DNA of 64,000 nucleotides from Aulosira sp. ZfuVER01 (lineage in GTDB: Bacteria > Cyanobacteriota > Cyanobacteriia > Cyanobacteriales > Nostocaceae). The stretch lies in contig JAVRCV020000006.1 of the NCBI GenBank assembly GCA_034530615.2, forward strand, positions 32,001 to 96,000, in the 5' to 3' direction. Below, piece by piece: positions 10,370 to 32,009 of the stretch (positions within the stretch are counted from its first letter, which is position 1; each line of letters opens with the position of its first letter). A program made the position numbers and the translations under genes. The notes beneath the pieces were generated by a model. It was not told where the DNA came from. It made no database searches and worked only from the letters and a program-made list of their open reading frames with translations.

Positions 10370-10380
10370 ATGTAGCTAGG

Positions 10381-10615: not shown

Positions 10616-11869
10616 GTGGTTACTCTGACTCTGCTTGAACCGCAACAAAAAACGCCACTCAAGCAATGGTATTTTGAGAACTCCTCCGCGATTAAAATTG
10701 GACGCGCGGCGGATAATCATGTTGTATTAAATGATAGTTTGGTTTCCCGCTATCATTTAGAACTTAAACCAGTCAATTCTGCCAAAAATGGCAGTTCATG
10801 GCAGGTAATTAGTCATGGTACGAATGGCACTTTCCTCAACGGTGTCCTTGTAACTCAGAGCCAACTACCAGATAATTCCCTGCTGCAACTAGCACAGGGA
10901 GGCCCAATAATAAAATTTCAACTTCAGGAGGTAACAACACCAGAATCTTTGCTGAGGCAAAAAGAAATTCCCGGCTCAACGGAAAAAACCTTTGCGCCTT
11001 CATCTTCTACCTGTACTCATGAAGGGAACTCCCCCAAAAATCTCTTTTGCATCCATTGCGGTCAACCTTTATCAGTGCAAAAGACGATTCGCCAGTATCA
11101 GGTATTACGGACTTTGGGACAAGGAGGCATGGGTACTACGTATCTTGCTTGGGATGCAGCAGGTGCGATCGCCGGACACCCACAACTGTTAGTGTTAAAA
11201 CAGATGAATGCCGATATGGTGAAAATTGCCAAGGCCCAAGAGTTATTTGAACGAGAGGCTTACACTCTCAAATCTCTTAACCATCTTGGAATTCCCAAAT
11301 ATTATGACTTTTTTGTTGAAGGCGGCAAAAAATATTTGGCAATGGAATTAGTCCACGGACAAGATTTAGAAAAACGGATTTATACCACAGGGCCAGTTAT
11401 CCCAAGTCAAGCGATCGCCTGGATGATCCAAACCTGCGATATTTTAGATTATCTCCATAGCCAGCAACCACCACTGATTCACCGGGATATTAAACCCGCT
11501 AACCTGATGGTGCGAAATTCTAACAATCGAATAGTAGTACTAGATTTTGGTGCAGTTAAGGAAATTGGTACAGCACCGGGTACTAGGATTGGCGCTGAGG
11601 GTTACTGCGCTCCCGAACAAGAACGAGGACAACCCCTCACCCAATCGGATTTATATGCCATTGGCCCCACTTTAATTTTTTTACTGACAGGTGAAAACCC
11701 TTTCAAGTTTTACCACCAGCGAGGGCGACATTTTCGCTTTGATGTAGCTAGCGTTCCAACAATTACTCCCCAATTAAGAGCGATTATCGATCGCGTTACA
11801 GAGCCATTGCCACGCGATCGCTATCAGACTGCTCAAGAACTAGCTACGGCATTAGCTACTTGCCAATGA
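10616..11869 (+). CDS. FHA-domain Ser/Thr protein kinase
   Basis: IGR...VSRYH...GTNGTFLNG FHA; LGQGGMG, VLK, HRDIKPAN, DFG and APE kinase motifs. Confidence 0.93.
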   Translation: MVTLTLLEPQQKTPLKQWYFENSSAIKIGRAADNHVVLNDSLVSRYHLELKPVNSAKNGSSWQVISHGTNGTFLNGVLVTQSQLPDNSLLQLAQGGPIIKFQLQEVTTPESLLRQKEIPGSTEKTFAPSSSTCTHEGNSPKNLFCIHCGQPLSVQKTIRQYQVLRTLGQGGMGTTYLAWDAAGAIAGHPQLLVLKQMNADMVKIAKAQELFEREAYTLKSLNHLGIPKYYDFFVEGGKKYLAMELVHGQDLEKRIYTTGPVIPSQAIAWMIQTCDILDYLHSQQPPLIHRDIKPANLMVRNSNNRIVVLDFGAVKEIGTAPGTRIGAEGYCAPEQERGQPLTQSDLYAIGPTLIFLLTGENPFKFYHQRGRHFRFDVASVPTITPQLRAIIDRVTEPLPRDRYQTAQELATALATCQ

Positions 11870-12147: not shown

Positions 12148-13062
12148 AACCTCGATTCAATTCAGATTTTGTTTAGTAAATGCTTAATCAAAACTGCTTT
12201 CCGTTTTGCAAATGTTACCGATGCGTAGAGCGTTGTACTTTTGGCAAAGCTAGTCTTAACTTTTTAACTATACCATAACTAACTCTACTAAGTTTCTGAG
12301 TAATTCGGTTTTGTACGGTAATTACCACCACAAAACACTAATTACATCGAACACTCATCATAGACACCAAAAGTAAAAATTAGCCGTCTCTATAGATGCA
12401 TCAACAGCAAGGGCAAATACGACTAGTAAAACTGTATTTGTTTTCGTCAACGGAATATGTGCAGATTGCGAAAACCCATATAATTAGGGCTGTTGGGAAG
12501 TTTGGTGAGTTAACGGTTCAATTATTTACCGTATTTGAATCTTATATAGAATATCGCAAACATCTGAAACTAAACAATCTTCTTGCAAATCTTTATATAA
12601 ATTTTATATTGGCATGAACGAGGTATCATTTATGGCATTTAATTTATGTCTTAATCAGAGACAAAATATAGTGCTGTAGGTAGATGAAGATACAGAAAAT
12701 ATAACCTTATTACTTATCTAAAAATTACTTTATTCGTAAATTAATTTTCTTTAGGGTTTTTGATGCGATCGGGTAAGGTCATAACGGATACAAACTACTA
12801 AAGTAGCTTGGTCAGCTTGGCAAGGCACCGCCTTTATGCTTGCCCCTATGTATCAAAACCGATATTACCGCAGGCGATCGCCGCTGAAAATTGTGGGTGT
12901 TGTACTTGCATCCCATAACATCTCATCTAGCCTTCAGATTCAGCTTTTGAATTTTGTGTAAAATATTTCTCCAGAAGATGATAGTTTCTGTGAAGTAGTG
13001 GGTATCCTCATAACGGGAGGATAGCTATTAGCTAAGTATTTACCACAGCATCTACATAAAGT

Positions 13063-13467
13063 ATGGGTTCAAGTGAAGAATATTTCATTGTCCGCCGCAA
13101 GCAGATTGCGCGGCGACAAAAGATTTTAACAATAGTGTCAATCGTATCATTTTTAGGTTCCATCGCCTTTTCAGCGATTCCGGCGATACAACAGGCTATT
13201 AATGCACCTAAGGCAGTAGTTGCATCTCCAGAGAATTCATTAGAAAAACAGGCAAAAGGTTTTGAAACTGTTTTAGAACGCGAACCAAATAATTTGGTGG
13301 CGTTGGAAGGGTTGGTAAATGTGCGACTAAATTTGAAAGATATTCAGGGTGCAATTCAACCTTTAGAAAAGTTAGTGAAGTTACGCCCTGAACGAAAAGA
13401 GTACAAAGTTCTTTTAGAGAGTTTGAAAAAAGAACAAGGTAAGAGCGATTCCCCGACAAATAACTAG
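13063..13467 (+). CDS. Membrane-anchored TPR protein (first gene upstream of the pse operon)
   Basis: One TM segment ([16 protein letters not shown]) followed by TPR-like [15 protein letters not shown]...LEKLVKLRP. Confidence 0.75.
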
Positions 13468-13522: not shown

Positions 13523-15677
<2,155 letters not shown>

Positions 15678-15681
<4 letters not shown>

Positions 15682-16427
15682 AAACTGTTGCAATTATTCA
15701 AGCTCGTATGGGGTCTACCCGTCTACCTGGAAAAGTGATGAAAGAGCTTTGTGGCAAAACTGTTTTGGCACATGTAATATTTCGGGTTCAAGCTTGTTTG
15801 TTAATTGATGAAGTGGTTGTGGCAACAACTACATCAAAAACAGATGATGTGATTGTTGTAGAAGCAGAAAAATGTAGAGTAAAGTGGTTTCGAGGAAGTG
15901 AAGAAGATGTTTTAGAGCGTTACTATTTCGCTGCTAAAAAATATAATGCTGATGTAGTGGTCAGAGTAACTTCTGACTGTCCGCTGTTTGACTCTGAAGT
16001 ACTTTCACAAATGTTGGTATACTTCAAACATCAAACATTTGAAGGCTTACAAATAGACTACCTCAGTAATTGCTTGCATCGCAGTTATCCCCGTGGTTTA
16101 GATGCAGAGGTTTTTACCTTTAATGTTTTAGAGAAAGCATTTAAAGAAGCACACAATCCATATGAAAGAGAACATGTTACACCTTATATCTACGAGCATC
16201 CCGAAATATTTGCTTTACATAACCATAGAAACGATGAAGATCTAACTAATTATCGGTGGACTTTGGATACCGAAGACGATTGGAAATTAATAGAAGCAAT
16301 CTATACAGATATATATCAGAATGAAGAAATTTTTACAACTGATGAAGTAATAGCTCTTTTAAGAGCAAAACCAGAATTGGTTAAACTCAATATTCATGTG
16401 AAGCAGAAACAACTTGGTTTTTGCTAG
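15678..16427 (+). CDS. SpsF-type cytidylyltransferase (probable CMP-pseudaminate synthetase)
   Basis: IQARMGSTRLPGKV, RGSEEDVLERY, RVTSDCP, REHVT and RWTLDT motifs; ATGA overlap with pseC. Confidence 0.8.
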
Positions 16428-16468: not shown

Positions 16469-17683
16469 ATGACTAAATACATTCAGTACTGCACTCATTG
16501 TGTTATGCCGGAAACTAAACCGGATTTATATATTGACGAGCAAGGAGTTTGTAGCGCCTGTCGCAATCTTGAAAAGCGGCAAGAAGTTAACTGGCCAGCA
16601 CGGAAAAAGGAATTGCTTGACATCTTAAAGCGTTACCGATCTAAGAACGGCAGTAATTATGACTGTATTATTCCTGTTAGTGGTGGTAAAGATAGCCACT
16701 TTCAAGTACTCAAAATCTTGGAAATGGGGATGAATCCTTTATGCGTTACAGCTACAACCGATAAACTGTCTGATATTGGAAGACGTAATATTGAAAATCT
16801 CAAAAACCTTGGTTTAGACTACATAGAAGTGACCACCAATCCCTTAGTGCGCAGCAAGATCAATCGTCTAGCGCTAACTGAAATTGGGGATATTTCTTGG
16901 CCAGAGCATGTAACTATATTTACTATACCTGTTAGATTAGCCGTACAACTCAACATACCATTAATTATTTGGGGAGAAAACCCACAGAATGAGTATGGTG
17001 GTCCTGCTGCTGCTGGAAACAACAATTCCTTGACCCGACGGTGGTTAGAAGAGTTTGGCGGACTGTTAGGACTGAGAGTTAGTGATTTAATAGGACAACA
17101 AGGGATTGAACCGCAACATCTAATTCAATATACCTATCCCTCTGACGAAGATTTACAAAGGGTTGGGGTAACAGGACTTTTCTTGGGTTACTATCTGCCT
17201 TGGGATGGTTATCAAAACGCCCTTTATGCGCAAGCTCACGGCTTTGAAACTTACCATAAGAGTATTGAAGGTTCCTTAGTGAACTACGAAAACTTAGACA
17301 ACTATCAGACGGGAATACACGACTACTTTAAGTTCCTCAAGTATGCTTTTGGGCGAGCTACAGACCTTGCTTGTTTGCACATCCGGCGTGGACGATTGGG
17401 AAGAGAAGAAGCTATCAAACTAGTGAAGATGCACGATGGCAAATTTCCTTGGGTTTATTTAGGTTACCCTTTAGAAGAGATTCTTAAAGAGATTGACATG
17501 ACCGTGGAAGAGTTTATTCAGGTCTGCGATCGCTTCACCAACAAAAAGCTATTTCTCTGTGATAACAGAGGCAACTTGGTAAAAGACAAACAGGGAAATC
17601 TTAGCAAAATTAACTACGACAATATCCTTCCTACTCAGGAATTAGACTGGCAGCTAACTGTAAATCACACCACAATCTCATAG
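16469..17683 (+). CDS. N-acetyl sugar amidotransferase (PseA/WbuX family)
   Basis: N-terminal CxxC..CxxC, PP-loop YDCIIPVSGGKDS, WGENPQNEYGG and HDYFKFLKYAFGRATD motifs. Confidence 0.88.
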   Translation: MTKYIQYCTHCVMPETKPDLYIDEQGVCSACRNLEKRQEVNWPARKKELLDILKRYRSKNGSNYDCIIPVSGGKDSHFQVLKILEMGMNPLCVTATTDKLSDIGRRNIENLKNLGLDYIEVTTNPLVRSKINRLALTEIGDISWPEHVTIFTIPVRLAVQLNIPLIIWGENPQNEYGGPAAAGNNNSLTRRWLEEFGGLLGLRVSDLIGQQGIEPQHLIQYTYPSDEDLQRVGVTGLFLGYYLPWDGYQNALYAQAHGFETYHKSIEGSLVNYENLDNYQTGIHDYFKFLKYAFGRATDLACLHIRRGRLGREEAIKLVKMHDGKFPWVYLGYPLEEILKEIDMTVEEFIQVCDRFTNKKLFLCDNRGNLVKDKQGNLSKINYDNILPTQELDWQLTVNHTTIS

Positions 17684-17690
17684 GATACGA

Positions 17691-18308
17691 ATGAAGAAAG
17701 TCGCGATTGTTGACTATGGTATGGGAAATGTGGATTCTGTCGCGCGTGCAGTTCAGCACTGCGGTGGTGAACCAATTATTACTTCCAAAACTGCTGATTT
17801 TGAAGTCGCAAATTACATCATTCTACCTGGAGTGGGCGCTTTTCAAACTGGTATGGAAAATATCTGTAGTCAGGGTTTAGAGGTAGTGTTACGAGAACAA
17901 GTCTTGGAACAAGGTGTTCCTTTTTTAGGGATTTGTTTGGGTATGCAACTGCTAGCTACTAAAGGTTGGGAAGGAGGAGAAACAGAAGGGCTGGGTTGGA
18001 TTGAAGGAGAAATAAAGCGACTTTTACCTGATAGCTCTGATATCCGTATTCCGCATGTGGGGTGGAATGAGGTTATCTTCAATCAACCTTCATCTGTATT
18101 TCAAAACATTCCCTCTGGCAAAGATTTCTACTTTGTTCACAGTTATCACTTCTCATGCCATCATCCTCAAGACGAAATTGCTCATACACCCTATTGTGGG
18201 GGCTTCGTCTCCGTAGTTGGTAGAAATAACATTTTGGGTGTCCAGTTTCATCCAGAAAAAAGCCAACGGCTGGGATTACAAGTTATGAAAAATTTTCTCT
18301 CTCTTTAG
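17691..18308 (+). CDS. HisH-like glutamine amidotransferase (WbuY-type paralogue)
   Basis: DYGMGN, LPGVGAF, GICLGMQ, PHVGWN, YFVHSY and QFHPEKS motifs; sugar-operon context. Confidence 0.9.
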   Translation: MKKVAIVDYGMGNVDSVARAVQHCGGEPIITSKTADFEVANYIILPGVGAFQTGMENICSQGLEVVLREQVLEQGVPFLGICLGMQLLATKGWEGGETEGLGWIEGEIKRLLPDSSDIRIPHVGWNEVIFNQPSSVFQNIPSGKDFYFVHSYHFSCHHPQDEIAHTPYCGGFVSVVGRNNILGVQFHPEKSQRLGLQVMKNFLSL

Positions 18309-18316
18309 TAGGCGCT

Positions 18317-19075
18317 ATGTTGAAAGTCCGTGTCATGCCAACTTTGTTATTTAAAAACTTCGGCTTAGTTAAAGGTGTCCAATTTAACAGTTGGCGGCGG
18401 GTTGGTAGCGCCATGCAAGCCGTTAAAGTCTACAATATGCGCGAAGTCGATGAGTTAATTTTCTTGGATATTAGTGCTAGTAGTGAGGGGCGTTCCCCTG
18501 ACTTTGAAACCGTCGATGAGCTTGCAGATGAGTGCTATATGCCTTTAACTGTAGGCGGCGGCGTACAAACAGTTGCAGATGTAAAGCGATTGTTGCAGGT
18601 TGGTGCTGATAAAGTAGCTATCAACACTGCTGCTGTATTTACACCAGAACTAGTTAAATCAGCAGCCCAGCTATTTGGCTCTCAATGTATAGTGGTTTCA
18701 ATTGATACCAAAAAGCTCCACAGTGGAAACTATGAAGTATTTACTCATAGTGGAACGCAGCCTACGGGGAAAGACCCTGTAACATTTGCTCAGGAAGTTG
18801 AGCAATTAGGTGCAGGTGAAATATTACTAACATCTATTGACGCTGATGGCACAATGACAGGTTACGATATCGAACTCATCAGAAGAGTCAGCCTAAAGGT
18901 TTCGATTCCTGTAATTGCATCTGGGGGGGCTGGAAATTACGAACATATGGCTTCGGCATTAATTGAAGGAGGAGCATCTGCGATCGCAGCAGCTAGTATA
19001 TTTCACTTTACTGAGCAAACTCCTTTGCAGGCCAAGCGTTTTCTCAAAGAACGCGGTATAAATGTACGGCAATAA
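18317..19075 (+). CDS. HisF-like cyclase-fold subunit (WbuZ-type paralogue)
   Basis: VKGVQF, DELIFLDI, VGGG, GADKV, TSIDADGT and ASGGAG motifs; the N-terminal PTLL lacks the HisF PCLD aspartate. Confidence 0.88.
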   Translation: MLKVRVMPTLLFKNFGLVKGVQFNSWRRVGSAMQAVKVYNMREVDELIFLDISASSEGRSPDFETVDELADECYMPLTVGGGVQTVADVKRLLQVGADKVAINTAAVFTPELVKSAAQLFGSQCIVVSIDTKKLHSGNYEVFTHSGTQPTGKDPVTFAQEVEQLGAGEILLTSIDADGTMTGYDIELIRRVSLKVSIPVIASGGAGNYEHMASALIEGGASAIAAASIFHFTEQTPLQAKRFLKERGINVRQ

Positions 19076-19186: not shown

Positions 19187-20677
19187 GTGAAAGTAATCAT
19201 TCGTACAGATGCTTCTAGTGAAATTGGGACAGGTCACTTAATGCGCTGTCTTGCTTTGGCTCATGTATGGCAAGGAATAGTAGGAGAAGCTATTTTTGTT
19301 ATGGCTACTGACGCTGCGACTTTAGAGGCACGGTTAAAATCAGAAAATCTGAAAATATTTCATCTACCAATGTATTTGCATAGCTCTGAGGATGCAAGAG
19401 AAACCGCTCGTCTTGCACAGCAGCTTGATGCTATGTGGGTTGTAGTTGATAGCTACTACTTTGGCTCTGAATACCAACAAATAATTAAAAATTCTGGGCT
19501 AAATCTTTTATTTATTGATGATTATGGACACGCAGATCGCTACTATGCAGATCTAGTTTTGAATCAGAACATCTCTGCCAATAAAAAATTGTACTCAAAA
19601 CGCGAGCTTTACACTCAGATATTACTCGGAACTGATTATGTATTGTTGCGACGGGAGTTTTTGCAATGGCAAGGATGGCAACGCTCTCACCCACATGTAG
19701 CCAGCAAATTACTGATCACAATGGGAGGTGCCGATCCTGATAATGTCACCCTGAAGATTATTAAAGCCTTAAATATGCTGGAGAGCGATGGAATGGAAGC
19801 AGTAGTTATAGTAGGAGGAAGTAATCCTCACTATGAACAATTGCTATTAGCATCAAAGAATTCGCTATTTCCTATTCGTCTAGAAAAGAATGTGACAAAT
19901 ATGCCTGAGTTGATGGCTTGGGCTGATGTGGCAATAACAGCAGGTGGTAGTACCTGTTGGGAACTAGCTTTTATGGGCTTGCCTAGCCTAATAGTGACTC
20001 TGGCTGAAAATCAAAGAGCGATCGCACAAAAATTAGATGAGATGGGGATATCTATCTATCTAGGTTGGCATGATGATGTTTCTCCTGCTGAAATAGGGTC
20101 GGCAGTTACTGATTTACTAATAGCTAAACATACACAAGTCGAAATGACTAAACGCGGACAAAAGTTAATAGATGGCGAAGGAAGTAAGCGGGTATTGAGT
20201 TATCTAGAAGCGAAGTTATTAAAATTACGCTGTGCTTGCCAAGAAGATGGTCGGTTGTTGTGGGAATGGGCAAATGACCCAGACGTAAGGGCTGTTTCCT
20301 TTTCTATAGAACCTATACCTTGGGAAGAGCATTTTCAATGGTTCCAATCACGACTGCACTCTCCGAATTGTATTTTCTACATTGGTGTTAATAGAAATAA
20401 TATACCTATTGGTCAAATTCGCTATGACATAGAAGGATATGAAGCCATTATTTCTATAAGTATCGATAGAAAGTTTCGTTATCAAGGTTATGGCTGTAAC
20501 CTGATTAATTTAGGATGCAAAAAAATATTTTCTGATTCTAACGTTAATATAATTCATGCCTATATAAAATCTCATAATCAAGTATCAATTAAAACTTTTT
20601 ACAAAGCAGGTTTTAAAAATATGGGAAAAACTAAATTAGGAAAACATGAGGCAGTTCATTTAGTCAGAAACAAATAA
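19187..20677 (+). CDS. pseG: PseG UDP-sugar hydrolase fused to a C-terminal PseH-like GNAT N-acetyltransferase
   Basis: RTDASSEIGTGHLMRCLALA, VVVDSY, IDD, MGGAD and AGGSTCWE (PseG), then LWEWANDPDVR...GQIRYD...N..SIKTFYKAGF (GNAT). Confidence 0.85.
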   Translation: MKVIIRTDASSEIGTGHLMRCLALAHVWQGIVGEAIFVMATDAATLEARLKSENLKIFHLPMYLHSSEDARETARLAQQLDAMWVVVDSYYFGSEYQQIIKNSGLNLLFIDDYGHADRYYADLVLNQNISANKKLYSKRELYTQILLGTDYVLLRREFLQWQGWQRSHPHVASKLLITMGGADPDNVTLKIIKALNMLESDGMEAVVIVGGSNPHYEQLLLASKNSLFPIRLEKNVTNMPELMAWADVAITAGGSTCWELAFMGLPSLIVTLAENQRAIAQKLDEMGISIYLGWHDDVSPAEIGSAVTDLLIAKHTQVEMTKRGQKLIDGEGSKRVLSYLEAKLLKLRCACQEDGRLLWEWANDPDVRAVSFSIEPIPWEEHFQWFQSRLHSPNCIFYIGVNRNNIPIGQIRYDIEGYEAIISISIDRKFRYQGYGCNLINLGCKKIFSDSNVNIIHAYIKSHNQVSIKTFYKAGFKNMGKTKLGKHEAVHLVRNK

Positions 20678-20697: not shown

Positions 20698-21753
20698 ATG
20701 ATAGAAATTAAGATTGCAGGTAAAAAAATAGGTGCTAACCATCTACCGTTTGTGGTTGCTGAAATGTCTGGCAATCACAACCAATCATTAGAAGTAGCTC
20801 TAGAAATAGTTGATGCAGTAGCCAAGGCTGGGGCACACGCTCTCAAACTCCAGACCTATACAGCAGATACTATGACCTTGGATATCCATGAGGGTGATTT
20901 TTATATTGATACGCCCAATAGTCTTTGGCATGGTAAATCGTTGTATCAGCTTTACCAACAGGCTTATACTCCTTGGGAATGGCATAAACCGATTTTTGAC
21001 CGTTGCAAGGAACGAGGAATCATCTGCTTTAGTACTCCTTTTGATGCTACGGCTGTAGATTTTCTGGAATCCTTAGAGGTACCTTGCTATAAAATTGCCT
21101 CTTTTGAAAATACTGATTTACCTCTAATCCGTAAAATTGCTAGCACTGGTAAACCGATGATTATCTCTACTGGTATGGCGACAGTTTCGGAGTTAGACGA
21201 AACAGTGCAGACAGCGCGCGAATCGGGTTGCCAGGATTTGATACTACTCAAATGCACAAGTACTTATCCAGCGACGCCAAAGGATAGCAACTTGTTGACT
21301 ATTCCTCATCTGCGTAATTTGTTCAATGTACAGGTAGGGTTATCAGATCACTCAATGGGGATTGGTGTTGCTGTTGCGAGTGTTGCTTTAGGGGCGACAT
21401 TTATTGAGAAACACTTTACTCTCCGTCGGGCTGATGGTGGTGTTGATTCCACTTTTTCAATGGAACCAGAAGAAATGCAGCAACTGGTTCTGGAAACTGA
21501 AAGAGCTTGGCAAGCACTGGGTAATATAAATTACGGCACGACAGAAGCGGAGAAAGCATCATTAAACTTTCGGCGATCGCTCTATATTTCACAAGATATA
21601 AAAGCCGGGGATGTTTTGACACCGGAAAATTTGAGAGCGATACGTCCAGGATTTGGCTTACCACCTAAATATTATCAAATTTTATTAGGCAAAAAGGTTA
21701 CCAAAAACTTGAAAAGAGGCACTCCTTTAGACTGGAAACTTCTCCTAGAGTAA
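20698..21753 (+). CDS. pseI: Pseudaminic acid synthase PseI
   Basis: AEMSGNHNQSL, KLQTYTADT, TPWEWH, KIASFE, LKCTSTYP, SDHS, EKHFTL and C-terminal RRSLY/SAF domain. Confidence 0.93.
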   Translation: MIEIKIAGKKIGANHLPFVVAEMSGNHNQSLEVALEIVDAVAKAGAHALKLQTYTADTMTLDIHEGDFYIDTPNSLWHGKSLYQLYQQAYTPWEWHKPIFDRCKERGIICFSTPFDATAVDFLESLEVPCYKIASFENTDLPLIRKIASTGKPMIISTGMATVSELDETVQTARESGCQDLILLKCTSTYPATPKDSNLLTIPHLRNLFNVQVGLSDHSMGIGVAVASVALGATFIEKHFTLRRADGGVDSTFSMEPEEMQQLVLETERAWQALGNINYGTTEAEKASLNFRRSLYISQDIKAGDVLTPENLRAIRPGFGLPPKYYQILLGKKVTKNLKRGTPLDWKLLLE

Positions 21754-21998
21754 TTGAGTAAAGATTACTTTTAGTTTTATTTAAAAAATATACGTAAATT
21801 ATAGAGGTGACATTATGGCAATATGCAATTGAAAGTTTTCCTTACACATACCAGAGATTTTTACTGTCTCAGTAAATCAGACCCAGAACTTAACACAAGG
21901 AATAAGCTATTTACTAAATAGAATTCCTTTACTTAGCTAGCTAATAGAGCCAATATTTATTGTCCGTTATTGAAAATTGTAAACAAAGGATTAGAGCA

Positions 21999-24900
21999 AT
22001 GACTGAACTTAAAAAAATCATGTTTTTCGCGCCATATGCATGGTGGTCAGTTCACAGTCAAGTCGATGCAGTGGTTGCTTCAGCATTAAGGTTGCGGAAT
22101 TGTGAGATTTTTGTAGTTGGTTGTGATGGAGTATATAAAAATTGCAATGTTGCACATTTCGCAACTCAGGTTGGTTACGAATATGCTGATGCTTGTCAAG
22201 CTTGTTCACAAACTAGTAAACAGCTTTTGGCCTCATCTTTTAATTTACCTTATCTACAGTTGCGTGATTGGATTAGTGACAAGGACTACAACATTGCTAA
22301 TCAATGGGTAGAAAATCTTGTTCTCCAAGATTATAAAAATGCTGTCTATTTTGACTTACCGATTGGTAAATGGGTGACCTCATCTATTTGTACATATTTT
22401 AGAATATCTTCTGATATAGAACTATCTAGACCAGAGGTTAGAAAAGTTCATAAACAATATTTAATTGATGGTTTAATAACTTATAAGGCAATTTCCAGAT
22501 TAATAGATACTTATAATCCTACCAATCTATTTTTATTCAATGCTCGCTTTGCACCTTACAGTGTAGCATTTGAGGTGGCAAAGCAGCATCAAATTGATGT
22601 GATCGCTCACGAAAGAGGATTTATTGCTGATAGTTTTGGTTTCTTTGATAATTCTAATTGTTTAAGCCCTAAGACCCCACTTGATTGTGTGAAAAGTTGG
22701 AAAGATATTCCTCTAAATAAGCAAGAAATTTCCCAAGTAAAAAAATATTTTATTGGGCGAGAAAATGGTCAGAATCTTAGTTGGCCTTCTTTTTATGATT
22801 TCCATTCAAATCATACGAATGTTCGGCACCAATTGAGAATTCCAGTAGACGCAAAAGTAGTTACTGTTTTCACATCAAGCGAAGATGAACATGCAATGTC
22901 TGAAGATTATAAAGTTATGACAAAGCAACTAGATATAATTGAAAGCTTGATGGAAATATTTAGGGATAGAGATGAATATTTAGTAATTCGCCATCATCCC
23001 TTTATCACAGGTGCAGGGAGTAAGACATTCCTACAAGCTATAGCATATGATTTTTTGTCAAAAGCTTATCAGCAAGTACTTTCTGCTCCTAAAAATGTGC
23101 GGATTATTATGCCCTCTGAGCAGTTAACTTCATATGCTCTTTTATGGCATTCTGATGCAGCGATCGCTTTTTTCAGCACTGTAGCACTTGAAGCAGCAGC
23201 TAGAGGTGTACCAACAGCAACATTTGAACAATCTCCATATCGGGAAGCAGTAAAACATACTTTTCAACAAATCAGTCAAGAATCTTTGGGAGAATTAGTC
23301 GAGAGACTACTTTCTGCATCTTGTCAAGCAACTGTCGAGGACTTGATCAAGTTGTATCGCTTCACTGATGCTTATTTCTTTAAATTTTCTACTAAGTTTC
23401 GCTCAATTGGTATTAAAGACTATCATCTTCCAGATTTCAAGATTAAATCTTTAGATGATTTGAAGCCTGGTATTGATCCAGCTTTAGATAGAATTTGCAA
23501 CAGAATTATACATAACACTTCTATCTACGATATCCCAACCGATGAGCGTAAAAATAACCCAAATTTTGAGGAGTTGAATTTCTTTAACAACGAGTTGCAG
23601 GAGATAGAAGAATATCGTCAAAAAATTAAGTCTCAAGCTTTAGAGAGTAACTATCTCTCTGCCAAACCTTCAGTAGCTATCATTAGTCTAAATTATATAA
23701 ACGTTCCACAGACTGACAAGCAGCTTTTACCTGCATGGAAAAATCAATCTCGGCATCAAAATCTGATTGTTTATGATTGCCATAATTTAGATTGGTATGA
23801 CTACCAAGGCATTATAGACTCAATTATTAATTGTATTTCCCTGATTGAAGAAGAATATATTCTGATTACGAATGATTATATTCAGTATGACGAATCTTTC
23901 ATCTCATCGGCTTTAGATATTCTTTTGGCAGCAGATCACAAAGAAACTGCCGGAGTTATATTTGGAGCTTGGATTGCATCTTCTAGTAGAATTAATCAAG
24001 AAATTTTTACAGAACGTGTACCTGCAAAAAGCTATCTAGAGGCTATAGAAGTTTTACCCTTACTCCAATTTCCTCAAAATCTGCTTTCTTTTGGACTAAT
24101 ACATAAAGATTTCTTGTTAAGGTTATTAACATCTGTTAAGTCAGCATCTAGTCACAATCCAGCTGGTGTAACGATCTTTAATGGTCTCCAACAGCCAGAG
24201 ATACAAAGAGTAGAGTTACCAATGTTAATTATTGAGGAATTAAATACTCATTTACATCAAGATAGGTTGCTAGAAGCAAATCAAATTCCTCAATTAAATA
24301 CTTTGGCATCAGCACAATCAGATACTTATCCTTCAAAGAATCTCAATCAACATATCCTACTATACACAGACGATTTTAGTATTTATGGCGTTGGTCAATA
24401 CAACCACTCTATTATTTGTGAATTAGCAAAATTAGGTTATCAAGTAACTTGTGTACAAACCCACACATCTAATCATCTCATTCAAGAACAACAAAAGTTA
24501 GGTATTCAGCATTTATGGCTAAATTATAATAGCATTCATGAGTTTTCAAGAACACTGTTGGATATATCAGATGCTCAAGAAATATTTCCTAAAATTAAAC
24601 CTGACCTGATTATTTTTAGTGATTGTTGTCCGTTATCCAATTTAGCTGCTAAAAAAGTGGCTAAACAGATGGGAATACCATATATTATTGTCGATGGATG
24701 TGCTGTTCCCTATTTAGCAGAGCGATTTGCCTCATACTTGGAAGAATTAGAGCAAATTCATACTCAAGCGGGAGCATTCATTACTGTCTCAAATGAAAAT
24801 TTGAATTTGTTACACCAGCTATTTAGGCTTCCAAAACACAAAGGACAAGTAATTTATAGCGGACGACCAGAACATTATTTTGCCCCTCCTAAACTATCTA

Positions 24901-27900
24901 TTCGCGATCGCCTACGTCAAGAATATGGTATTCCTGCAAATGCAGTAATTTGTTTTACAGCTGCTCGCTTAGACGCAGGAAAAGGTTATCAGTACCAGCT
25001 AGAAGCAATTAAGCAACTTATGCAAAGTGAATCATGGCATAAGCTATATTTTGTATGGGCTGGTGATGGTGCTTTAGAAGCACAACTTAAGCAAGCAATC
25101 GAGCAATTAAAGATTAGCAATCACGTCAAACTTTTAGGTAACTGCACAAATATTGTTGAGTGGCTGGATACATCTGATATTTTTGTTTTGCCTTCCGAAT
25201 TTGAATCATTTGGATTAGCAATTGTAGAGGCAATGGCAAAAGAATTACCAGTTATTGCTCCGGCTGTAGGCGGTATTCCAGAAGTGCTTGGAGATGTGGG
25301 GAAACTTGTCTCTGACCCAAAAATTAATCCACAAGCTACGATTGAGGAAATGGCAAGAACAATTGAAGCTTGGTCGCTAAATCCAGAATTGCGTCGTTCA
25401 ATTGGCCTGGCTGGTAAAAAGCGTGCAGAAGCCATGTTTAAGGAAGAACGGATGATCAAACAAACTATGGAAGTAGTGGAACGCACACTATTGCTACAAA
25501 GAAATCAAGTTTCATCTTCTTTCGCAAATATGCCTCTTGTCTCTGTCATTATTTCCTGTTACAACCTAGCTGAGTTTTTACCCGAAACAGTGGCCAGTGT
25601 CATTGCTCAGACATACGAGAACTGGGAAATCATTATTGTTAATGATGGGAGTAAAGATAATACCAGTGAAGTTGCACAACAGTTGATATCAACCTATTTT
25701 AATAAAAAGATCCGACTTGTTGAGAAAGCAAACGGTGGGCCTGCTAGCGCTAGAAATGCTGGTATCAGAGTATCTAATGGTGAATATATACTTCCATTAG
25801 ATGCTGATGATAAGTTAAGCTCAACAGGAATTGAGAATCTATTAAGTGTGGCATTAAATCAAGATTCTCCTTGTGTGGCATTTGGTTCCTATCAAATGTT
25901 TGGAATCGAAAATAAACTCATTGTCAGCGCAGGCTTGTTTTCTAAAGAAAACATGAAGCGATTTGATATGATTCACAATTCTTCACTCTATTCAAAGAAA
26001 GTGTGGAATTTAGTTAAGGGTTATAAAGAAGATGTTGCTTTAATTGGTTATGAGGATTGGGAATTTTGGCTGAATTGCTTAAAACATAAAATCAACTTCT
26101 ATGGTACACAAGAAATAGTAATATATTACCGCAGAAGTGTTGATTCGACTGGCAATCGAGCTTTTACCCAACATCATAATAAGTTTGCCTTAATCGTTGC
26201 ATACAATTCTGAGATTTTTAACCCAACAATAATTAAAGAATCAGAGAACTTGTTGCTTTCATTTGGGTTGATTAAAAAGTCAAGTGAACTCAGCAATGAA
26301 TTAGAAGAGCTTTTATTGCAAATAAATAGCTGCGTTAATCAGTATCAGCAACAACCAAGCAGCCACTCAGCAATAGCTAACCTCTGTCAAGCTCGTCAGA
26401 AATTTGCAGAAAAATTGCTCACTATACCAGCAGAAAAATTGATCGTTAATTACTCTGAGTATCTAGGTGATGCACATCAAAAATTGCTAAATAGCGGTAT
26501 TAAACATGAGTTGCTGACAGAGAAAGAGCAGAATTTTGTTAATACACTATCAGATCATATTGCTAAAGGTTTTGGCGAATCACAATCTATCCAATACCTG
26601 TTGGCAGGAATGTTGTACTGCCGTGCTGACCAACTACCACTGCAATATGACCTAACTCATATTCCTCAATGGTTGCTAGCTGATTATCTGAAATTTATCT
26701 TAGAATTTCCGCGCCTATTTCAAGAAAAGGGAGAAGCAAATAATTACTATCGCTATTTACAACAATGGCTAGATTACTTACAAGAAAATATATCCAGTAA
26801 TCCAGAATCAGTATTATGGCAGTATATAGCGAATTTTTTCCTTCAAGCTGCTAACTTTAGCCCTTTATATTTCACTACAGAAAATTTAAAAGAGATTTAT
26901 ATCAAACGCGCTGAGATCATGGAATATGCTTTGAAAACTCAAGGCTATGAAATTGACTACGACTTTCCAGAACGATCTCTAGAACGAAAAAAAATGCGTC
27001 TAGGAGTTCTTGCTGCTCATTTTCAACTGGGTACAGAAACCTTTCACACACTGCCAGCATACAAACATTTAGATTGGAATAGGTTTGAAATTATTCTCTA
27101 CACTGTAAGTGCCAATAATAGTCGTTTAGAACGCTATTGTGCAGGTCATGTAGATGCTTTAGTTATCTTACCTTCAGACCTACAAAGTCAGGTACAAACG
27201 ATTCGTAATGGAGATCTCGATCTTCTCTTAATTGCAACAAACGTGACATTAGTCACAAATCAGATTACATTACTTGCCTTGCATCGACTAGCAAGGCTAC
27301 AGTTGACCTTTGGCTCTTGCCCTGCAACAACAGGCATACGAAACATTGACTATTTTATCTCTGGAAGATTATCAGAACCTGTGTCAGGTGGACAAAAGCA
27401 TTATAGAGAAAAGTTAGTAACTCTTGATGGAGTAGGTTACTGTTTTGATTACCCTTCTGAACTAGAAACTCCCACAATTAAACCCTATCGAGAAAGCTGG
27501 GGTGCAAGTGAAAAAACTGTTGTATTTACTTCGGGTGCTAATTTCTACAAGATAATTCCAGAAGTGAGAGAAACCTGGGTAAAAATTCTTGCTGCTGTAC
27601 CTGATTCAATTCTCGTTTTATACCCATTTGCTCCTAGCTGGAGCAATTCATATCCGGCTAACTCTTTCCTCAACCAAATGTATGCGGTTTTGGCTAAGTA
27701 CGATGTTGACAAAAGCCGTCTCATAGTTCTTAATGCACTACCTAGTCGTGCTGATGTTAAAGAAGTTTTAAAGCTAGCTGATGTGTATTTAGATTCCTAC
27801 CGCCATTCCGGTGGTCATTCTCTTGTAGATGCTTTAGAGGTAGGATTAACACCTGTAGTTTTGGAAGGTGAACCTCTGCGGTCGAAGCATGGGTCTGCCT

Positions 27901-28550
27901 ACTTAAAAGACATCGAAATGCCTGACTTAGTAACAGACAACGAGATAGACTATATCAATTTAGCGATCGCACTTGGTAATAACCCTGAATTACGCCAGCA
28001 AAAGAGTGCCCAAATCAAAGAAAAAATGCAGGGCAATCCCAGTTTTCTGGATAGTCGCTCCTACTCAGCTAAAATAGGGAAACTATTCCAAGAGCTATTC
28101 AGCAATTATCTTGCAGATAATCTGAGCCAAAACTTGCCCTTAAATGAGACTAACCTGATTATTTTTCCTGACTGGTCACAACCAGAAGACCTACTATATC
28201 AAGATTTATCCAGTGTAATTTCTGCTCTCACTACTCACCCTGATAAAAGTCAGATAACTCTCTTAATAGATACTCACAATATTTCTGAAGAGGAAGCTGA
28301 TATGCTTTTATCGTCTTTGACCATAAATTTGCTAATGGAAGAGGATGTGGATATAACTGAGGGACCAGAAATTTCTTTGCTAGGGCAGATAAGCGATATT
28401 CAATGGGAAACTCTTTTGCCTAAAATTCAAACTCGAATTGCTTTAACAATAGATAATCCACAGGCGATCGCCCAAGTGAAAGCAGACAAGTTACCAGTCT
28501 GTGAATTAGATAGCTTGAGTGTCTTCCAATTAGAGGTGCTACCTGTGTAG
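21999..28550 (+). CDS. Giant (~2183 aa) multi-module glycosyltransferase: KpsS/capsule-synthesis-like, degenerate GT-A, GT4, GT2 and GT41/HMW1C-like domains plus a C-terminal tail
   Basis: HERG/RHHP/STVALEA (N-terminal); FVLPSEFESFGLAIVEAMA (GT4); PLVSVII..YN, VNDGS, LDADD, EDWEFW (GT2); PATTG..IDYFIS, ANFYKI, ADVYLDSY (GT41). ATG 21999 follows AAAGGA. Confidence 0.85.
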   Translation: MTELKKIMFFAPYAWWSVHSQVDAVVASALRLRNCEIFVVGCDGVYKNCNVAHFATQVGYEYADACQACSQTSKQLLASSFNLPYLQLRDWISDKDYNIANQWVENLVLQDYKNAVYFDLPIGKWVTSSICTYFRISSDIELSRPEVRKVHKQYLIDGLITYKAISRLIDTYNPTNLFLFNARFAPYSVAFEVAKQHQIDVIAHERGFIADSFGFFDNSNCLSPKTPLDCVKSWKDIPLNKQEISQVKKYFIGRENGQNLSWPSFYDFHSNHTNVRHQLRIPVDAKVVTVFTSSEDEHAMSEDYKVMTKQLDIIESLMEIFRDRDEYLVIRHHPFITGAGSKTFLQAIAYDFLSKAYQQVLSAPKNVRIIMPSEQLTSYALLWHSDAAIAFFSTVALEAAARGVPTATFEQSPYREAVKHTFQQISQESLGELVERLLSASCQATVEDLIKLYRFTDAYFFKFSTKFRSIGIKDYHLPDFKIKSLDDLKPGIDPALDRICNRIIHNTSIYDIPTDERKNNPNFEELNFFNNELQEIEEYRQKIKSQALESNYLSAKPSVAIISLNYINVPQTDKQLLPAWKNQSRHQNLIVYDCHNLDWYDYQGIIDSIINCISLIEEEYILITNDYIQYDESFISSALDILLAADHKETAGVIFGAWIASSSRINQEIFTERVPAKSYLEAIEVLPLLQFPQNLLSFGLIHKDFLLRLLTSVKSASSHNPAGVTIFNGLQQPEIQRVELPMLIIEELNTHLHQDRLLEANQIPQLNTLASAQSDTYPSKNLNQHILLYTDDFSIYGVGQYNHSIICELAKLGYQVTCVQTHTSNHLIQEQQKLGIQHLWLNYNSIHEFSRTLLDISDAQEIFPKIKPDLIIFSDCCPLSNLAAKKVAKQMGIPYIIVDGCAVPYLAERFASYLEELEQIHTQAGAFITVSNENLNLLHQLFRLPKHKGQVIYSGRPEHYFAPPKLSIRDRLRQEYGIPANAVICFTAARLDAGKGYQYQLEAIKQLMQSESWHKLYFVWAGDGALEAQLKQAIEQLKISNHVKLLGNCTNIVEWLDTSDIFVLPSEFESFGLAIVEAMAKELPVIAPAVGGIPEVLGDVGKLVSDPKINPQATIEEMARTIEAWSLNPELRRSIGLAGKKRAEAMFKEERMIKQTMEVVERTLLLQRNQVSSSFANMPLVSVIISCYNLAEFLPETVASVIAQTYENWEIIIVNDGSKDNTSEVAQQLISTYFNKKIRLVEKANGGPASARNAGIRVSNGEYILPLDADDKLSSTGIENLLSVALNQDSPCVAFGSYQMFGIENKLIVSAGLFSKENMKRFDMIHNSSLYSKKVWNLVKGYKEDVALIGYEDWEFWLNCLKHKINFYGTQEIVIYYRRSVDSTGNRAFTQHHNKFALIVAYNSEIFNPTIIKESENLLLSFGLIKKSSELSNELEELLLQINSCVNQYQQQPSSHSAIANLCQARQKFAEKLLTIPAEKLIVNYSEYLGDAHQKLLNSGIKHELLTEKEQNFVNTLSDHIAKGFGESQSIQYLLAGMLYCRADQLPLQYDLTHIPQWLLADYLKFILEFPRLFQEKGEANNYYRYLQQWLDYLQENISSNPESVLWQYIANFFLQAANFSPLYFTTENLKEIYIKRAEIMEYALKTQGYEIDYDFPERSLERKKMRLGVLAAHFQLGTETFHTLPAYKHLDWNRFEIILYTVSANNSRLERYCAGHVDALVILPSDLQSQVQTIRNGDLDLLLIATNVTLVTNQITLLALHRLARLQLTFGSCPATTGIRNIDYFISGRLSEPVSGGQKHYREKLVTLDGVGYCFDYPSELETPTIKPYRESWGASEKTVVFTSGANFYKIIPEVRETWVKILAAVPDSILVLYPFAPSWSNSYPANSFLNQMYAVLAKYDVDKSRLIVLNALPSRADVKEVLKLADVYLDSYRHSGGHSLVDALEVGLTPVVLEGEPLRSKHGSAYLKDIEMPDLVTDNEIDYINLAIALGNNPELRQQKSAQIKEKMQGNPSFLDSRSYSAKIGKLFQELFSNYLADNLSQNLPLNETNLIIFPDWSQPEDLLYQDLSSVISALTTHPDKSQITLLIDTHNISEEEADMLLSSLTINLLMEEDVDITEGPEISLLGQISDIQWETLLPKIQTRIALTIDNPQAIAQVKADKLPVCELDSLSVFQLEVLPV

Positions 28551-28594: not shown

Positions 28595-28625
28595 AAAAAA
28601 AAGCCTGCGGAAACAGGCTTTTTTT
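28595..28625. terminator. Bidirectional intrinsic terminator between the giant GT and ogtA
   Basis: AAAAAAAAGCCTG-cggaaa-CAGGCTTTTTTT; a second hairpin CATGGTGAA/TTCACCATG lies at 28568-28590. Confidence 0.85.
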
Positions 28626-28831: not shown

Positions 28832-31060
28832 CTATTTTCCTTCCAGATACCTTTGCCACATCTGTTCGTAAGCCTTCTCCATTTCACGGGTAAACTGCTT
28901 ACCATTCCACAGCGGTGCAGTGTGCCGAGACTGACGTAATTGCCCAGAAATTTGCTGTCTTAAAGAAGCATCTTTACCCAAGCGTACGCCCCATTCTATA
29001 TACTCTTCATCTGTCCAAGCTATGCCTTCGGTTATACCAGCATTCACCATCATGGTGTAGCTATTACGTGCTGCGAATTGTTCACCAACTCTCGTTACTA
29101 AAGGGATACCCATCCATAATGTTTCTAGGGTTGTTGTTGCTCCATTGTAAGGATATGTATCTAATACAATATCAGCAATGCCCAAGTTAGCACGATGAAC
29201 TGACTCTAGAGAGACTTGCGGTAAAAATCGTAACCTAGATATGTCCACACCCTCCTCTTCAGCAATTTGATAAAAAAAGCGTTTAATTGCTTCTTCTTCA
29301 GAAAGTCCCTTAATCAAAAAGTAGCTGTTAGGTACTTGTTTGATAATTTGCATTTGCCACCTAGTTGTTTCTGGATGGCGTTTATATCCTCTTTGTGCGC
29401 TTAGATATACAACAGCATCTTCAGGGATATTTAAGTCCTCTCTACGAAGAGTTGGTACACCTACCTCAAAACCATCTACTGCTATGTAAGTTTGCGATAA
29501 TCGCCAGATTTTCTCTGTGTAGTAATCTTGTGCATCATCTGGTAATACATAGGGGTCGGCAATAAAGTAATCAATTGCAGGTATGCCTGAAGCATCCCAA
29601 CCTAGCCAAGTAACTTGGATAGGTGCTGGCTTGAGTGCCATCACTTCGCTAGTAATATCCAAAGTAATGCTATCAAGGTCAATTAAAATATCGATTTCAT
29701 CTTGATATATTTGTTCAGCAATCTCTAAGCCATTCATACCTAGCTTATGAACATTACCTGCATTTTGTACATACCAATCTTGAAGAAAATCATTGACTAA
29801 TTGATAATTAACAAAATATGTATGAATCTCAAATTTGTCTTTATCATGATGCTGAAATAACCAGCGAGCTAGCCAACCAACTGAATGATTTCTTAAAGCG
29901 TAAGATACATAACCAATTTTTAATTTTTTAGTGGAATGTTTTAAATCTTGACTATTATTTTTGTAATAAGCTTTTTTTCCTTGTGATTGAGCAAAATCTT
30001 GAACATCAGTATTGAAAATTTTAGCTATTTGATTCTGAATTCTCCGGAAACTAGCAGGATTATCTTTAATGTGAGGTATAGCAAAAGATGGTGTTAGCAA
30101 CCGTAGTATTCTGCCCTCTTCTAAGGCAATTGGTTGGGCTTGGATAAACTGTTGAAATACTGCTTCCAATTCTTGGCAAGTTTCACATATCTCCTGCCAA
30201 TATCCACCTGCTGACATTAGTCCTCTTAACAGCAAATGGAGGGCGAAAATTTTATCAGCTAAACTTTCTGATAGCGAATAACATAACTTAGCTGTCTCTA
30301 TACCCTGAGAATAATTACGAGCATCTTGATAAAAAACTGCTAAATGTCTTAAAATCTCTACATTCTCTGGTTCTAATTTTAAATGCAATTTAAGAAGCTC
30401 TGCTGCTAGCAAAGGTTGCCGTAAAGTATGCCCAATTGTCATAGCAGTAGTAAGGATTAGGCAAAAGCAGTGATAAGTATCAGAAAAGTGAGGTAAACAA
30501 GCTTCTACTAAATTTAGATTGAATGGATGTAAAGGCGCAGTATTTAAAAAATCTTCTAAAACTTGTATTAACAATTCGGCATTGATATTTGCGCTTTCTA
30601 GCTCGTTTAAATTTTCAATTATTCCCCATTCATGCAAGTCTTTAATATCTTCAAATTTTTCAAGTTTGAGGCAAAGTCGCAATATGTGAAGTAAATTATT
30701 AATGTCAATAGGATTAACTTCACGCATATGCTGGCGGATTAACCAGGCTAGGGAATATTCTCCCAATACTTCGCGTTTTTCAGCTTCTATTTGCAAAAAT
30801 TGAAATAGTTCGTTTGTCCAAATTTCTAACTGCTCTTCATCTGCCTCTGTCATTGGCAGCATCCACGTCATTTGGGCTTCAGCTTCTTGTCCTTGTAATA
30901 GCAATAGTAATCCTAAATGCCAATAATAAAAAATAGCATTTGGTTCTATTACTATTGCTTTTTCATATAACTGTGCTGCTTGCAGATATTTTTCTTGGAT
31001 AAAGTATTGTTCAGCTTGATTCTGCCAATTCTGTATATTAGTAATCATTGTATTTTTCAT
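28832..31060 (-). CDS. ogtA: O-GlcNAc transferase / SPINDLY-like GT41 with TPRs (OgtA-like)
   Basis: N-terminal TPRs; KLKIGYVS...HSVGW, DILIDL, PAPIQVTWLG and DTYPYNGATTTLETLWMGIP motifs; directly downstream of pilA as in Nostoc punctiforme. Start uncertain (31072/31060/31048). Confidence 0.88.
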   Translation of the reverse strand: MKNTMITNIQNWQNQAEQYFIQEKYLQAAQLYEKAIVIEPNAIFYYWHLGLLLLLQGQEAEAQMTWMLPMTEADEEQLEIWTNELFQFLQIEAEKREVLGEYSLAWLIRQHMREVNPIDINNLLHILRLCLKLEKFEDIKDLHEWGIIENLNELESANINAELLIQVLEDFLNTAPLHPFNLNLVEACLPHFSDTYHCFCLILTTAMTIGHTLRQPLLAAELLKLHLKLEPENVEILRHLAVFYQDARNYSQGIETAKLCYSLSESLADKIFALHLLLRGLMSAGGYWQEICETCQELEAVFQQFIQAQPIALEEGRILRLLTPSFAIPHIKDNPASFRRIQNQIAKIFNTDVQDFAQSQGKKAYYKNNSQDLKHSTKKLKIGYVSYALRNHSVGWLARWLFQHHDKDKFEIHTYFVNYQLVNDFLQDWYVQNAGNVHKLGMNGLEIAEQIYQDEIDILIDLDSITLDITSEVMALKPAPIQVTWLGWDASGIPAIDYFIADPYVLPDDAQDYYTEKIWRLSQTYIAVDGFEVGVPTLRREDLNIPEDAVVYLSAQRGYKRHPETTRWQMQIIKQVPNSYFLIKGLSEEEAIKRFFYQIAEEEGVDISRLRFLPQVSLESVHRANLGIADIVLDTYPYNGATTTLETLWMGIPLVTRVGEQFAARNSYTMMVNAGITEGIAWTDEEYIEWGVRLGKDASLRQQISGQLRQSRHTAPLWNGKQFTREMEKAYEQMWQRYLEGK

Positions 31061-31236
31061 AGGTAATTGCATGGACAATATAACTCTGAAGCTCACATAA
31101 CGGAAATAAAGTGGATAGAAGCATCTACCCACTTTAAAAACTACTAATTTAGTTCAATACAAACTACACGAAAAATTACTTTGCTATGAAGTGGCTTAGA
31201 CAAACAATACTTTCACGTAGTAAGTGACTGTTTCAC

Positions 31237-31812
31237 TTATTTCAAAGAGACAAAGTTACTAGGACATGAGGGTGAATTAGTGGTGCTGTCGAAATTGCCA
31301 CTAACACTATAGGCAACTACATCTGAACCACTATTAACTCTTGCTGCGGTCGCTTCACATAAAGTAGCTACGGTAGTAGCTTCACTGGTAGAAGCTTGCG
31401 TTGTTACACCCACATTACCTATATAAGATTTGAGAGGTGCATTGGCAAGTACTGTTGCTGCTTGGTTAGTTACTTGGCTGGCGTTAGTAGAACCACCACC
31501 AGAAATTGAGTACTTGTAATTTGTGGTTTGTGTGGCAATACCAAGACCTAGTTTACCAAAGTCAGCTTGAGCAGCAAATTGGTTCTGTTCTAAGTAATAA
31601 GCTTGCTGAGCGCGGTTCATGGAACCTACGTAGGTTTTAGCTTCAGACTGCTTGGCTTTGTTGGCTTGGTTCAAGAAAGAAGGTAGTGCAATAGCAGACA
31701 AAATACCGATAATGATGATTACTACCAACAATTCAATAAGTGTGAAACCTTCGTTTTCTTGTTTTTTGCCGAGAATGTGTTGGATAAATTTAGCTTTCAG
31801 TTCGGTTTTCAT
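31237..31812 (-). CDS. pilA: Type IV major pilin PilA
   Basis: Class III signal MKTELKAKFIQHILGKKQENEG|FTLIELLVVIIIIGILSAIALPSF, NRAQQAYYLE, and a C-terminal Cys pair. Confidence 0.93.
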   Translation of the reverse strand: MKTELKAKFIQHILGKKQENEGFTLIELLVVIIIIGILSAIALPSFLNQANKAKQSEAKTYVGSMNRAQQAYYLEQNQFAAQADFGKLGLGIATQTTNYKYSISGGGSTNASQVTNQAATVLANAPLKSYIGNVGVTTQASTSEATTVATLCEATAARVNSGSDVVAYSVSGNFDSTTNSPSCPSNFVSLK

Positions 31813-31855
31813 AAGTGTTTTCCCTGGGGTGGGGTGGGTTGTTTGTTCTAAAAAG

Positions 31856-31864
31856 AACTTACCC
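31856..31864 (-). promoter_or_regulatory. Candidate SigF-type -10 element for pilA
   Basis: GGGTAAGTT on the minus strand ~45 nt upstream of the pilA ATG, resembling the GGGTAAG element of cyanobacterial SigF pilA promoters. Confidence 0.5.
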
Positions 31865-32009
31865 ACCTCAGAGCAGTTTCATATCACTAGTAGCAAAAAA
31901 TATTTTTCGCTAGATTTTCATCCTCAAATAGCAGTGATGGGAAGGTGAATTGATAGGGTTGCAAACACCTGCGTAGAACGCGGAGTTGCTTGTCTTAGAC
32001 ATTGCTCAC

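Follow-up and report, generated by a model that had tools for sequence, protein, structure and literature searches.

Pili drive the motility of hormogonia, which underlies the colonization of plants and lichens. Flagellin glycosylation islands and the glycosylation of serine-rich-repeat proteins in streptococci are precedents for variable sugar and glycosyltransferase (GT) cassettes next to the gene of the acceptor, for stepwise transfer in the cytoplasm and for pseudaminic acid (Pse) on appendages; they use other transferase families (Maf/FlmG, GtfA/B), and we know of no shared tail domain in those systems. Here, we analyzed a 64,000-nt stretch of Aulosira sp. ZfuVER01 (Nostocaceae; contig JAVRCV020000006.1, positions 32,001-96,000), referred to as the window, which contains one giant gene for a fusion of several GTs. 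The gene is an allele of a GT cassette that is hypervariable, hereafter the slot, and that lies between a small tetratricopeptide repeat (TPR) gene and ogtA-pilA in Nostocaceae. In many filamentous cyanobacteria, interchangeable versions of the cassette adjoin the pilin gene and likely make sugar chains on the motility pili that differ from strain to strain.

WbbB of Raoultella terrigena reportedly carries further GT modules C-terminal to its capping module. Like the giant protein, it holds an N-terminal CMP-ulosonate (CMP, cytidine monophosphate) capping module in one polypeptide; however, it terminates a lipid-linked O-antigen for export, whereas the giant protein has a GT41 domain, a linkage to pilA, and many swapped architectures (PMC12887879). 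The Chlorovirus PBCV-1 proteins A064R and A111/114R are likewise multi-domain and build a protein-linked glycan, but they are viral and involve no GT41 and no nonulosonate, and A064R, with two GTs plus a methyltransferase, has its capping domain at the C-terminus (PMC7826918). The O-antigen clusters of E. coli share the cap-first order and the exchange by recombination in conserved flanks, and in 69 of 178 clusters the GT genes stand in reverse order of action; they comprise separate genes working on a lipid carrier, whereas the slot is fused and tied to pilA-ogtA (PMC7685785). OgtA, which is needed for PilA glycosylation in Synechococcus elongatus or PilA accumulation in Nostoc punctiforme, belongs to GT41 as does one domain of the giant protein, which differs in having no recognized TPRs, and the available passages of that paper do not describe a convergent cassette (PMC9306852).

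Reverse gene order and glycan enzymes that combine several modules with a capping domain are therefore already known. As far as our literature search reached, the pilA-linked hypervariable island, a transferase family with an SxxxE motif and four cysteines, and a shared half-domain tail are new. The search returned no paper on the island, with most subscription papers outside its reach, and a published synteny figure may show the slot.

Slot composition across genomes

A single open frame spans positions 21960-28550 on the plus strand, and its ATG at 21999 yields 2183 residues. The same layout was found in seven relatives (2167-2183 residues), so the giant fusion is not an assembly error. From the N-terminus, it consists of a first module (N1), a GT-A-like second domain, GT4, GT2, a helical region with GT41, and a tail (Table 1). 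This six-part layout, together with HERG (22608), RHHP (22989) and STVALEA (23175), had been proposed in an earlier reading of the letters alone (the sequence-only reading) and was borne out by the single frame, by modeled folds and by Pfam matches to GT4 (PF00534, 8e-38), GT2 (PF00535, 1.5e-31) and GT41 (PF13844, 1.3e-22). The Pfam scan left N1, the second domain, the helical region and the tail of the giant protein without a match.

Comparisons were made in a family sample of 151 genomes and a phylum sample of 201 genomes. The stretches compared came from 26 of the 27 remaining GT41 genomes and from 39 additional places in other genomes, some taken off the top of the tail list and some selected because they have a nonulosonate synthase. 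The constancy of GT41 plus tail expected by the sequence-only reading was not observed, as the tail occurred in 109 of the 151 family genomes (44 of 201 across the phylum) and 28 of the 151 held the helical+GT41 unit. Tail proteins lay between the TPR/FHA-kinase genes and ogtA-pilA, with at least one border present in 70 of 75 loci (three duplicates among the 75). The contents differed widely, including GT2, GT4, FkbM, TylF, CmcI and other methyltransferases, and the same modules were seen split or fused, with internal tails. Such internal tails are marks of old gene ends within fusions.

Among 55 unique slots with a full OgtA, the helical GT41 was found in 21 and a third, TPR-bearing GT41 type in 19, with both in one slot. 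A second GT41 besides OgtA was thus present in 39 slots, and 16 had no intact one (one of them frameshifted). The helical GT41 was present in 7 of 40 unique N1 loci and absent from 33. In L014, the whole slot consisted of Pse genes and an N1-GT-A-tail protein, with no other recognized GT beside ogtA; counts of slots without a second GT41, such as this one, cover the slot, and a GT41 elsewhere in the genome is possible. Three further loci (L085, L087, L088) held methyltransferase-helical-GT41 genes without a tail and with no slot border in the stretch, one copy being split.

Linkage to pilA and ogtA

Pairwise identities of OgtA and PilA were correlated (rho 0.74, 49 loci), compared with 0.19 for OgtA and the adjacent TrxB (29 loci). 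Each of the 14 OgtAs that share at least 70% identity with that of the window accompanied a helical-GT41 giant, as did 7 of the 40 others, and the OgtA clade with this constant giant covers several genera. In L146-L148, which belong to the same genus and have unrelated slot contents, OgtA was 51% identical and TrxB 94-95%, a pattern that reads as block exchange of pilA-ogtA-slot.

The pentamer GGGTA precedes the slot head in 48 of 51 loci, where 10.8 would be expected, as well as pilA in 49 of 49 and ogtA in 30 of 50, against 2 of 29 for trxB and 7 of 28 for the FHA kinase as controls. Elements resembling TGATA-N16-GGGTA precede the slot head and pilA, while ogtA has GGGTA only. This pentamer is the SigF-type core in Synechocystis (PMC2532724); a strict SigF reading was dropped because the slot genes of N. 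punctiforme are still induced in a sigF mutant. No locus had a J-box-like GGG[AG][AT]TAC upstream of ogtA, pilA or the slot head.

In published RNA-seq data, Npun_R0678-R0686 beside ogtA, which we equated with the slot by numbering, strand and names, encode a group 1 GT, an aminotransferase, a CMP-transferase, a NeuB-domain protein, and a methyltransferase. Together with ogtA, these genes had risen about 19- to 64-fold by 1 h after hormogonium induction, and the response was blunted without sigJ and retained without sigF (PMC6495340). As N. punctiforme is a genetic model that carries counterparts of the slot genes and induces them, the proposal developed below is directly testable. PilA glycosylation matters, yet the papers cited here name only OgtA, and the slot supplies candidates for the remaining enzymes. 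These vary between close relatives, as would be expected for a surface under phage or host selection.

N1 and its association with nonulosonate genes

The AlphaFold model of residues 1-764 had a predicted local distance difference test score (pLDDT) of 93. N1 matched KpsC with a best Z of 14.3 and a root-mean-square deviation (rmsd) of 3.6 Å over 275 residues; KpsC structures spanned Z 13.4-14.3 and rmsd 3.6-4.4 and were the lowest-rmsd GT-B matches. KpsC (TMt 0.54) and WbbB (TMq 0.27) also had the best template-modeling (TM) scores among the Foldseek matches listed. In an Atlas search, PF05159 clusters were found at 0.96 and made up 23 of 30 matches, and PF05159 (Capsule_synth) was detected in 21 of 33 aligned N1 relatives at E ≤ 0.1 (best 4e-8). 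By sequence, the PDB returned only weak KpsC matches for N1 (E 0.73) and none with query A1. The N1 family comprised 2,377 representatives at E ≤ 1e-30.

Within the RxHP motif, R331 was conserved in 189 of 191 rows (K in the other 2) and H333 and P334 in all 191, and E297 of S/T-x-x-x-E was present in 192 of 192. Residues C42, C49, C66, C69 and E205 were near-invariant. The cysteines form C-x6-C...C-x2-C (residues 42-69, window 22122-22205), near-invariant across about 188 relatives, which is likely a metal site and unusual for a GT. The conserved Glu of HERG may match the base in the YE motif of KpsS1.

Characterized retaining Kdo (3-deoxy-D-manno-octulosonate) transferases use QxxxD and (K/R)xHP (PMC12887879). 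The KpsC-type GT-B arrangement, (K/R)xHP and, for part of its relatives, affinity to PF05159 are shared by N1 with KpsC/KpsS (GT107), WbbB (GT99), KrkA (GT140) and KpsS1 (GT118); N1 differs from GT99, GT107 and GT140 in having the Glu of SxxxE for QxxxD, and from all four in its four conserved Cys, its usual GT-A-fold partner and its length of about 545 residues (PMC12887879). Hence, the KpsS/KpsC-like N-terminus of the sequence-only reading stood as to modeled fold and RxHP. By fold and CMP motif, N1 resembles retaining CMP-ulosonate transferases, yet it fails one defining motif, QxxxD. Its invariant E297 would be the nucleophile of a retaining transfer, and its gene neighborhood predicts a CMP-Pse transferase.

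Because the PF03102 cut-off gave weak matches in 150 of the 151 family genomes, a nonulosonate synthase was counted only at E < 1e-60. As the sequence-only reading had anticipated, the N-terminal module co-varied with nonulosonate genes: N1 occurred in 5 of 151 genomes, all five with a synthase within 10 kb, against a background of 21 of 151 genomes. The synthase was present in the fetched stretch of 32 of the 40 unique N1 loci, whereas among the 28 genomes with a GT41 giant only 6 have one. In 56 family slot loci, a tally that is partly ascertained and covers stretches of up to 20 kb, synthase and N1 or a second module, N2, occurred together in 9, neither in 46, the module only in 1 (on a short contig), and the synthase only in 0.

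Where a slot synthase came without N1, the unrelated N2 stood first, or, in L086, the polysialyltransferase-like N3 (PF07388). N2 (about 340 residues; no Pfam, NCBIfam or PDB match) lies next to pseI in L076 (7605-8654, minus), L093 (11372-12421, plus), L132, L134 and L141, and is a candidate second family of nonulosonate transferases. Few such enzymes are known, and N1 and N2 are both candidates. Another first module, N4 (about 310 residues, no Pfam match), was seen beside DegT-type aminotransferase genes in L091 (6807-7736, minus), L092 and L095, and is possibly an amino-sugar transferase. Between pseI and N1, PhyH-type dioxygenases fused to GSCFA/methyltransferase domains were observed in L003 (7721-9895), L019 (7540-9960) and L007 (2323-4746); these may tailor the sugar.

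Remaining modules of the giant protein

Residues 556-748 aligned to GT-A folds (6p61, Z 15.0; SpsA, Z 14.0). The degenerate GT-A-like segment of the sequence-only reading was thereby confirmed, and across 25 sequences no conserved DXD and no invariant acidic residue was found; this domain is likely non-catalytic. Such partner domains were counted 41 times beside 46 N1.

The GT41 domain retains the Lys aligned to the YKI motif of OGT (invariant in 13 of 13), and its first His motif is replaced by a conserved ET. It was 24% identical to the neighboring OgtA-like enzyme and forms a separate subfamily, and a TPR array was not matched anywhere in the giant protein by the Pfam scan. It had earlier been called GT41/HMW1C-like; the GT41 part held, and the HMW1C part was not supported, since SPINDLY/OGT enzymes matched at E 8e-21 to 1e-15 and the N-glycosyltransferase (NGT)-type 'Adhesin' entries 8p0o/8p0q at 0.85. 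The preceding helical region is present as three C-terminal repeats in other lineages: Microcoleus-type giants (P0116, P0121, P0126 and other long homologues) are tailless, and three extra copies of it form their C-terminal end.

The tail was modeled at pLDDT 85 as the isolated C-terminal half of a GT-B fold and matched XcOGT (Z 9.3, rmsd 2.6). A PDB sequence search returned no match for it, and a homodimer prediction scored 0.02. Profile-profile comparison was insignificant for N2-N1, N4-N1, tail-GT41, tail-N1, GT-A domain-GT2 and helical-TPR; the link of tail to GT41 is therefore one of fold. The Aulosira genome has a second tail gene (contig C36, 9575-11686, minus; also L149) with an N-terminal tail, TPR and the third GT41 type. 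Its homologues lie within the slot in many relatives, and outside it in Aulosira.

Proposed route and alternatives

The explanation we favor, to which we give about an even chance, is that PilA receives its first sugar from OgtA, that slot enzymes including the giant protein extend the chain in the cytoplasm, and that N1 caps it with amidino-modified Pse. OgtA would be the primer of a pilin O-glycan and PilA its acceptor. The GT41, GT2 and GT4 modules would extend the inner part of the chain, with a second priming role as the alternative for GT41, and N1 would add the modified Pse last in a retaining transfer through E297. The GT-A domain might be the acceptor-binding partner of N1, and the tail a non-catalytic docking or localizing tag.

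Several points weigh against this route. Generic GT-B enzymes tie with KpsC as matches of N1 in Z (13.9), though at rmsd 8-10, and precede it by Foldseek E-value; N1 of the window itself has no PF05159 match; and QxxxD was found in 0 of 192 N1 rows at the expected place, in a QxxxD/SxxxE register drawn from topology. Since the identical N1 type accompanies differing synthase types, the exact sugar is not fixed family-wide. The linkage to pilA could be hitch-hiking, and counts are overstated because the genomes are related. Finally, the pilin head is exported, so that a soluble enzyme would have to act before membrane insertion, a route that is hypothetical for chains of several sugars.

The collinear logic of the sequence-only reading, resembling a nonribosomal peptide synthetase (NRPS), makes the giant protein a self-contained line, in which priming of the protein falls to its own GT41, extension from C- to N-terminus to GT2 and GT4, and capping to N1, with hand-off within the polypeptide. 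The retained catalytic Lys and the place of GT41 C-terminal to the variable GTs fit this logic, as does the module order. Modules were defined in 193 proteins by greedy BLAST, and only 2 of 48 recurring pairs occurred in both orders in 68 architectures, whereas 1000 shuffles averaged 31.9 such pairs and never gave fewer than 23; this statistic ignores kinship among genomes. In fusions with other GTs, N1 (18/18), N2 (7/7), N3 (1/1) and N4 (7/7) always came first, 33 of 33 together. The GT41 subtype also tracked the preceding GT in Nostocales clusters (GT4b 25/26, GT2b 26/37, GT2a 14/17), and most slots have a second GT41.

The near-fixed order was thus upheld, but the initiating GT41 is not obligatory, as most N1 loci lack the helical type and the slots without an intact second GT41 include N1-only ones. 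Since OgtA has published support in PilA glycosylation, priming by the giant protein's own GT41 is unnecessary. Moreover, N1 was joined directly to this GT41 subtype in 3 proteins, methyltransferases follow a GT, and are thus internal, in 19 of 31 architectures, and shared ancestry and flank recombination also preserve order. Reverse order is common in separate GT genes, so order alone is no proof of NRPS-like hand-off, and a fixed order need not imply hand-off along the chain. By analogy with many O-antigen clusters, cap-first order probably arose by fusing adjacent genes already so arranged. We consider the self-contained line unlikely.

Action of the cassette on a non-pilin target, such as another hormogonium surface protein, a hormogonium polysaccharide or a lipid-linked chain, appears unlikely as well. 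The sigJ regulon includes many surface genes, and N1 relatives outside cyanobacteria rarely occur with GT41 (1/119) and never with the tail (0/119); in addition, KpsC/WbbB-type enzymes cap lipid-linked polysaccharides (PMC12887879). However, the slots read, where many open reading frames (ORFs) are unlabelled, had no recognizable flippase, ABC exporter, polymerase, or ligase, co-inheritance with ogtA-pilA is tight, and the GT41 domains suggest protein acceptors. That the modules are independent, serving separate sites or branches with some inactive, and that fusion is operon compaction only, fits the split, fused and internal-tail forms, the lost DXD and the Ser/Thr-rich pilin head, but is improbable given the near-total conservation of order and four unrelated module types that all stand cap-first.

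A bolder version of the favored route, which we regard as doubtful, takes the slot as a programmable pilin 'glycotype' locus, in which modules in cap-to-core order, fused or joined by the half-GT-B tail, would make the glycan readable from the gene, and N1 would be a new Glu-nucleophile, Cys4 family of nonulosonate transferases with >2,000 members at 50% clustering. Dozens of natural architectures in fixed order allow domain order to be tested against glycan sequence.

Gene neighborhood

The genes 5′ of the giant gene are listed in Table 1. The sequence-only reading had taken the adjacent operon to make Pse; the profiles of pseB, pseC and pseI exceed their cut-offs, and the wbuXYZ set predicts an acetamidino modification of the sugar. 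Upstream, the conserved flank of the slot is made up of genes for a zinc-ribbon PP2C phosphatase and an FHA Ser/Thr kinase (window 8384-11869). Convergent with the giant gene and 3′ of it lie the TPR-GT41 gene, pilA and trxB, and the hairpin in between is terminator-like and could serve both convergent units.

Table 1. Features of the slot and of the giant gene in the window
Feature	Position	Strand	Basis or remark
TGATA-N16-GGGTA promoter-like element, head of slot operon	12979..13004	+	GGGTA count across loci; putative function
Small TPR protein, hydrophobic N-terminal stretch; conserved 5′ slot border	13063..13467	+	Pfam and slot comparison
pseB	13529..14518	+	TIGR03589 over cut-off
pseC	14476..15681	+	TIGR03588 over cut-off
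CMP-nonulosonate synthetase-like cytidylyltransferase	15678..16427	+	PF02348 3e-35; under PseF cut-off
wbuX, wbuY (HisH-type), wbuZ amidotransferase set	16469..19075	+	TIGR03573, TIGR03572 over cut-off
pseG fused to GNAT acetyltransferase (PseH-like, under cut-off)	19187..20677	+	Family profiles
pseI, pseudaminic acid synthase	20698..21753	+	TIGR03586 510 bits vs cut-off 340
Giant glycosyltransferase fusion	21999..28550	+	2183 aa from ATG at 21999
N1, KpsC/KpsS-like GT-B module, residues 1-545	21999..23633	+	Predicted structure and alignment
GT-A-fold partner domain of N1, residues 556-748	23664..24242	+	Predicted structure
GT4 module with E-x7-E motif	24339..25493	+	Pfam and alignment
GT2 module with NDGS and DADD motifs	25533..26198	+	Pfam and motifs
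Helical region preceding the GT41 subfamily of the giant protein	26316..26963	+	Homologue comparison
GT41 (OGT/SPINDLY-like) catalytic domain	26985..28118	+	PF13844 80 bits (cut-off 25)
Tail, lone C-terminal half-domain of GT-B type, common to slot proteins	28140..28523	+	Predicted structure
Hairpin with flanking A and T runs	28595..28625	no strand	Read from sequence, unscored
TPR-GT41 gene, ogtA-like	28832..31132	-	PF13844 1.7e-53; putative orthology from place after pilA
Type IV pilin pilA	31237..31866	-	GGGTA at 31864

The true start of pilA probably lies within the ORF given. The pilin head is rich in Ser/Thr (31 of 115 residues in the window copy). Far downstream, window 54062-61086 holds three long ORFs on the plus strand (1127, 442 and 687 residues).

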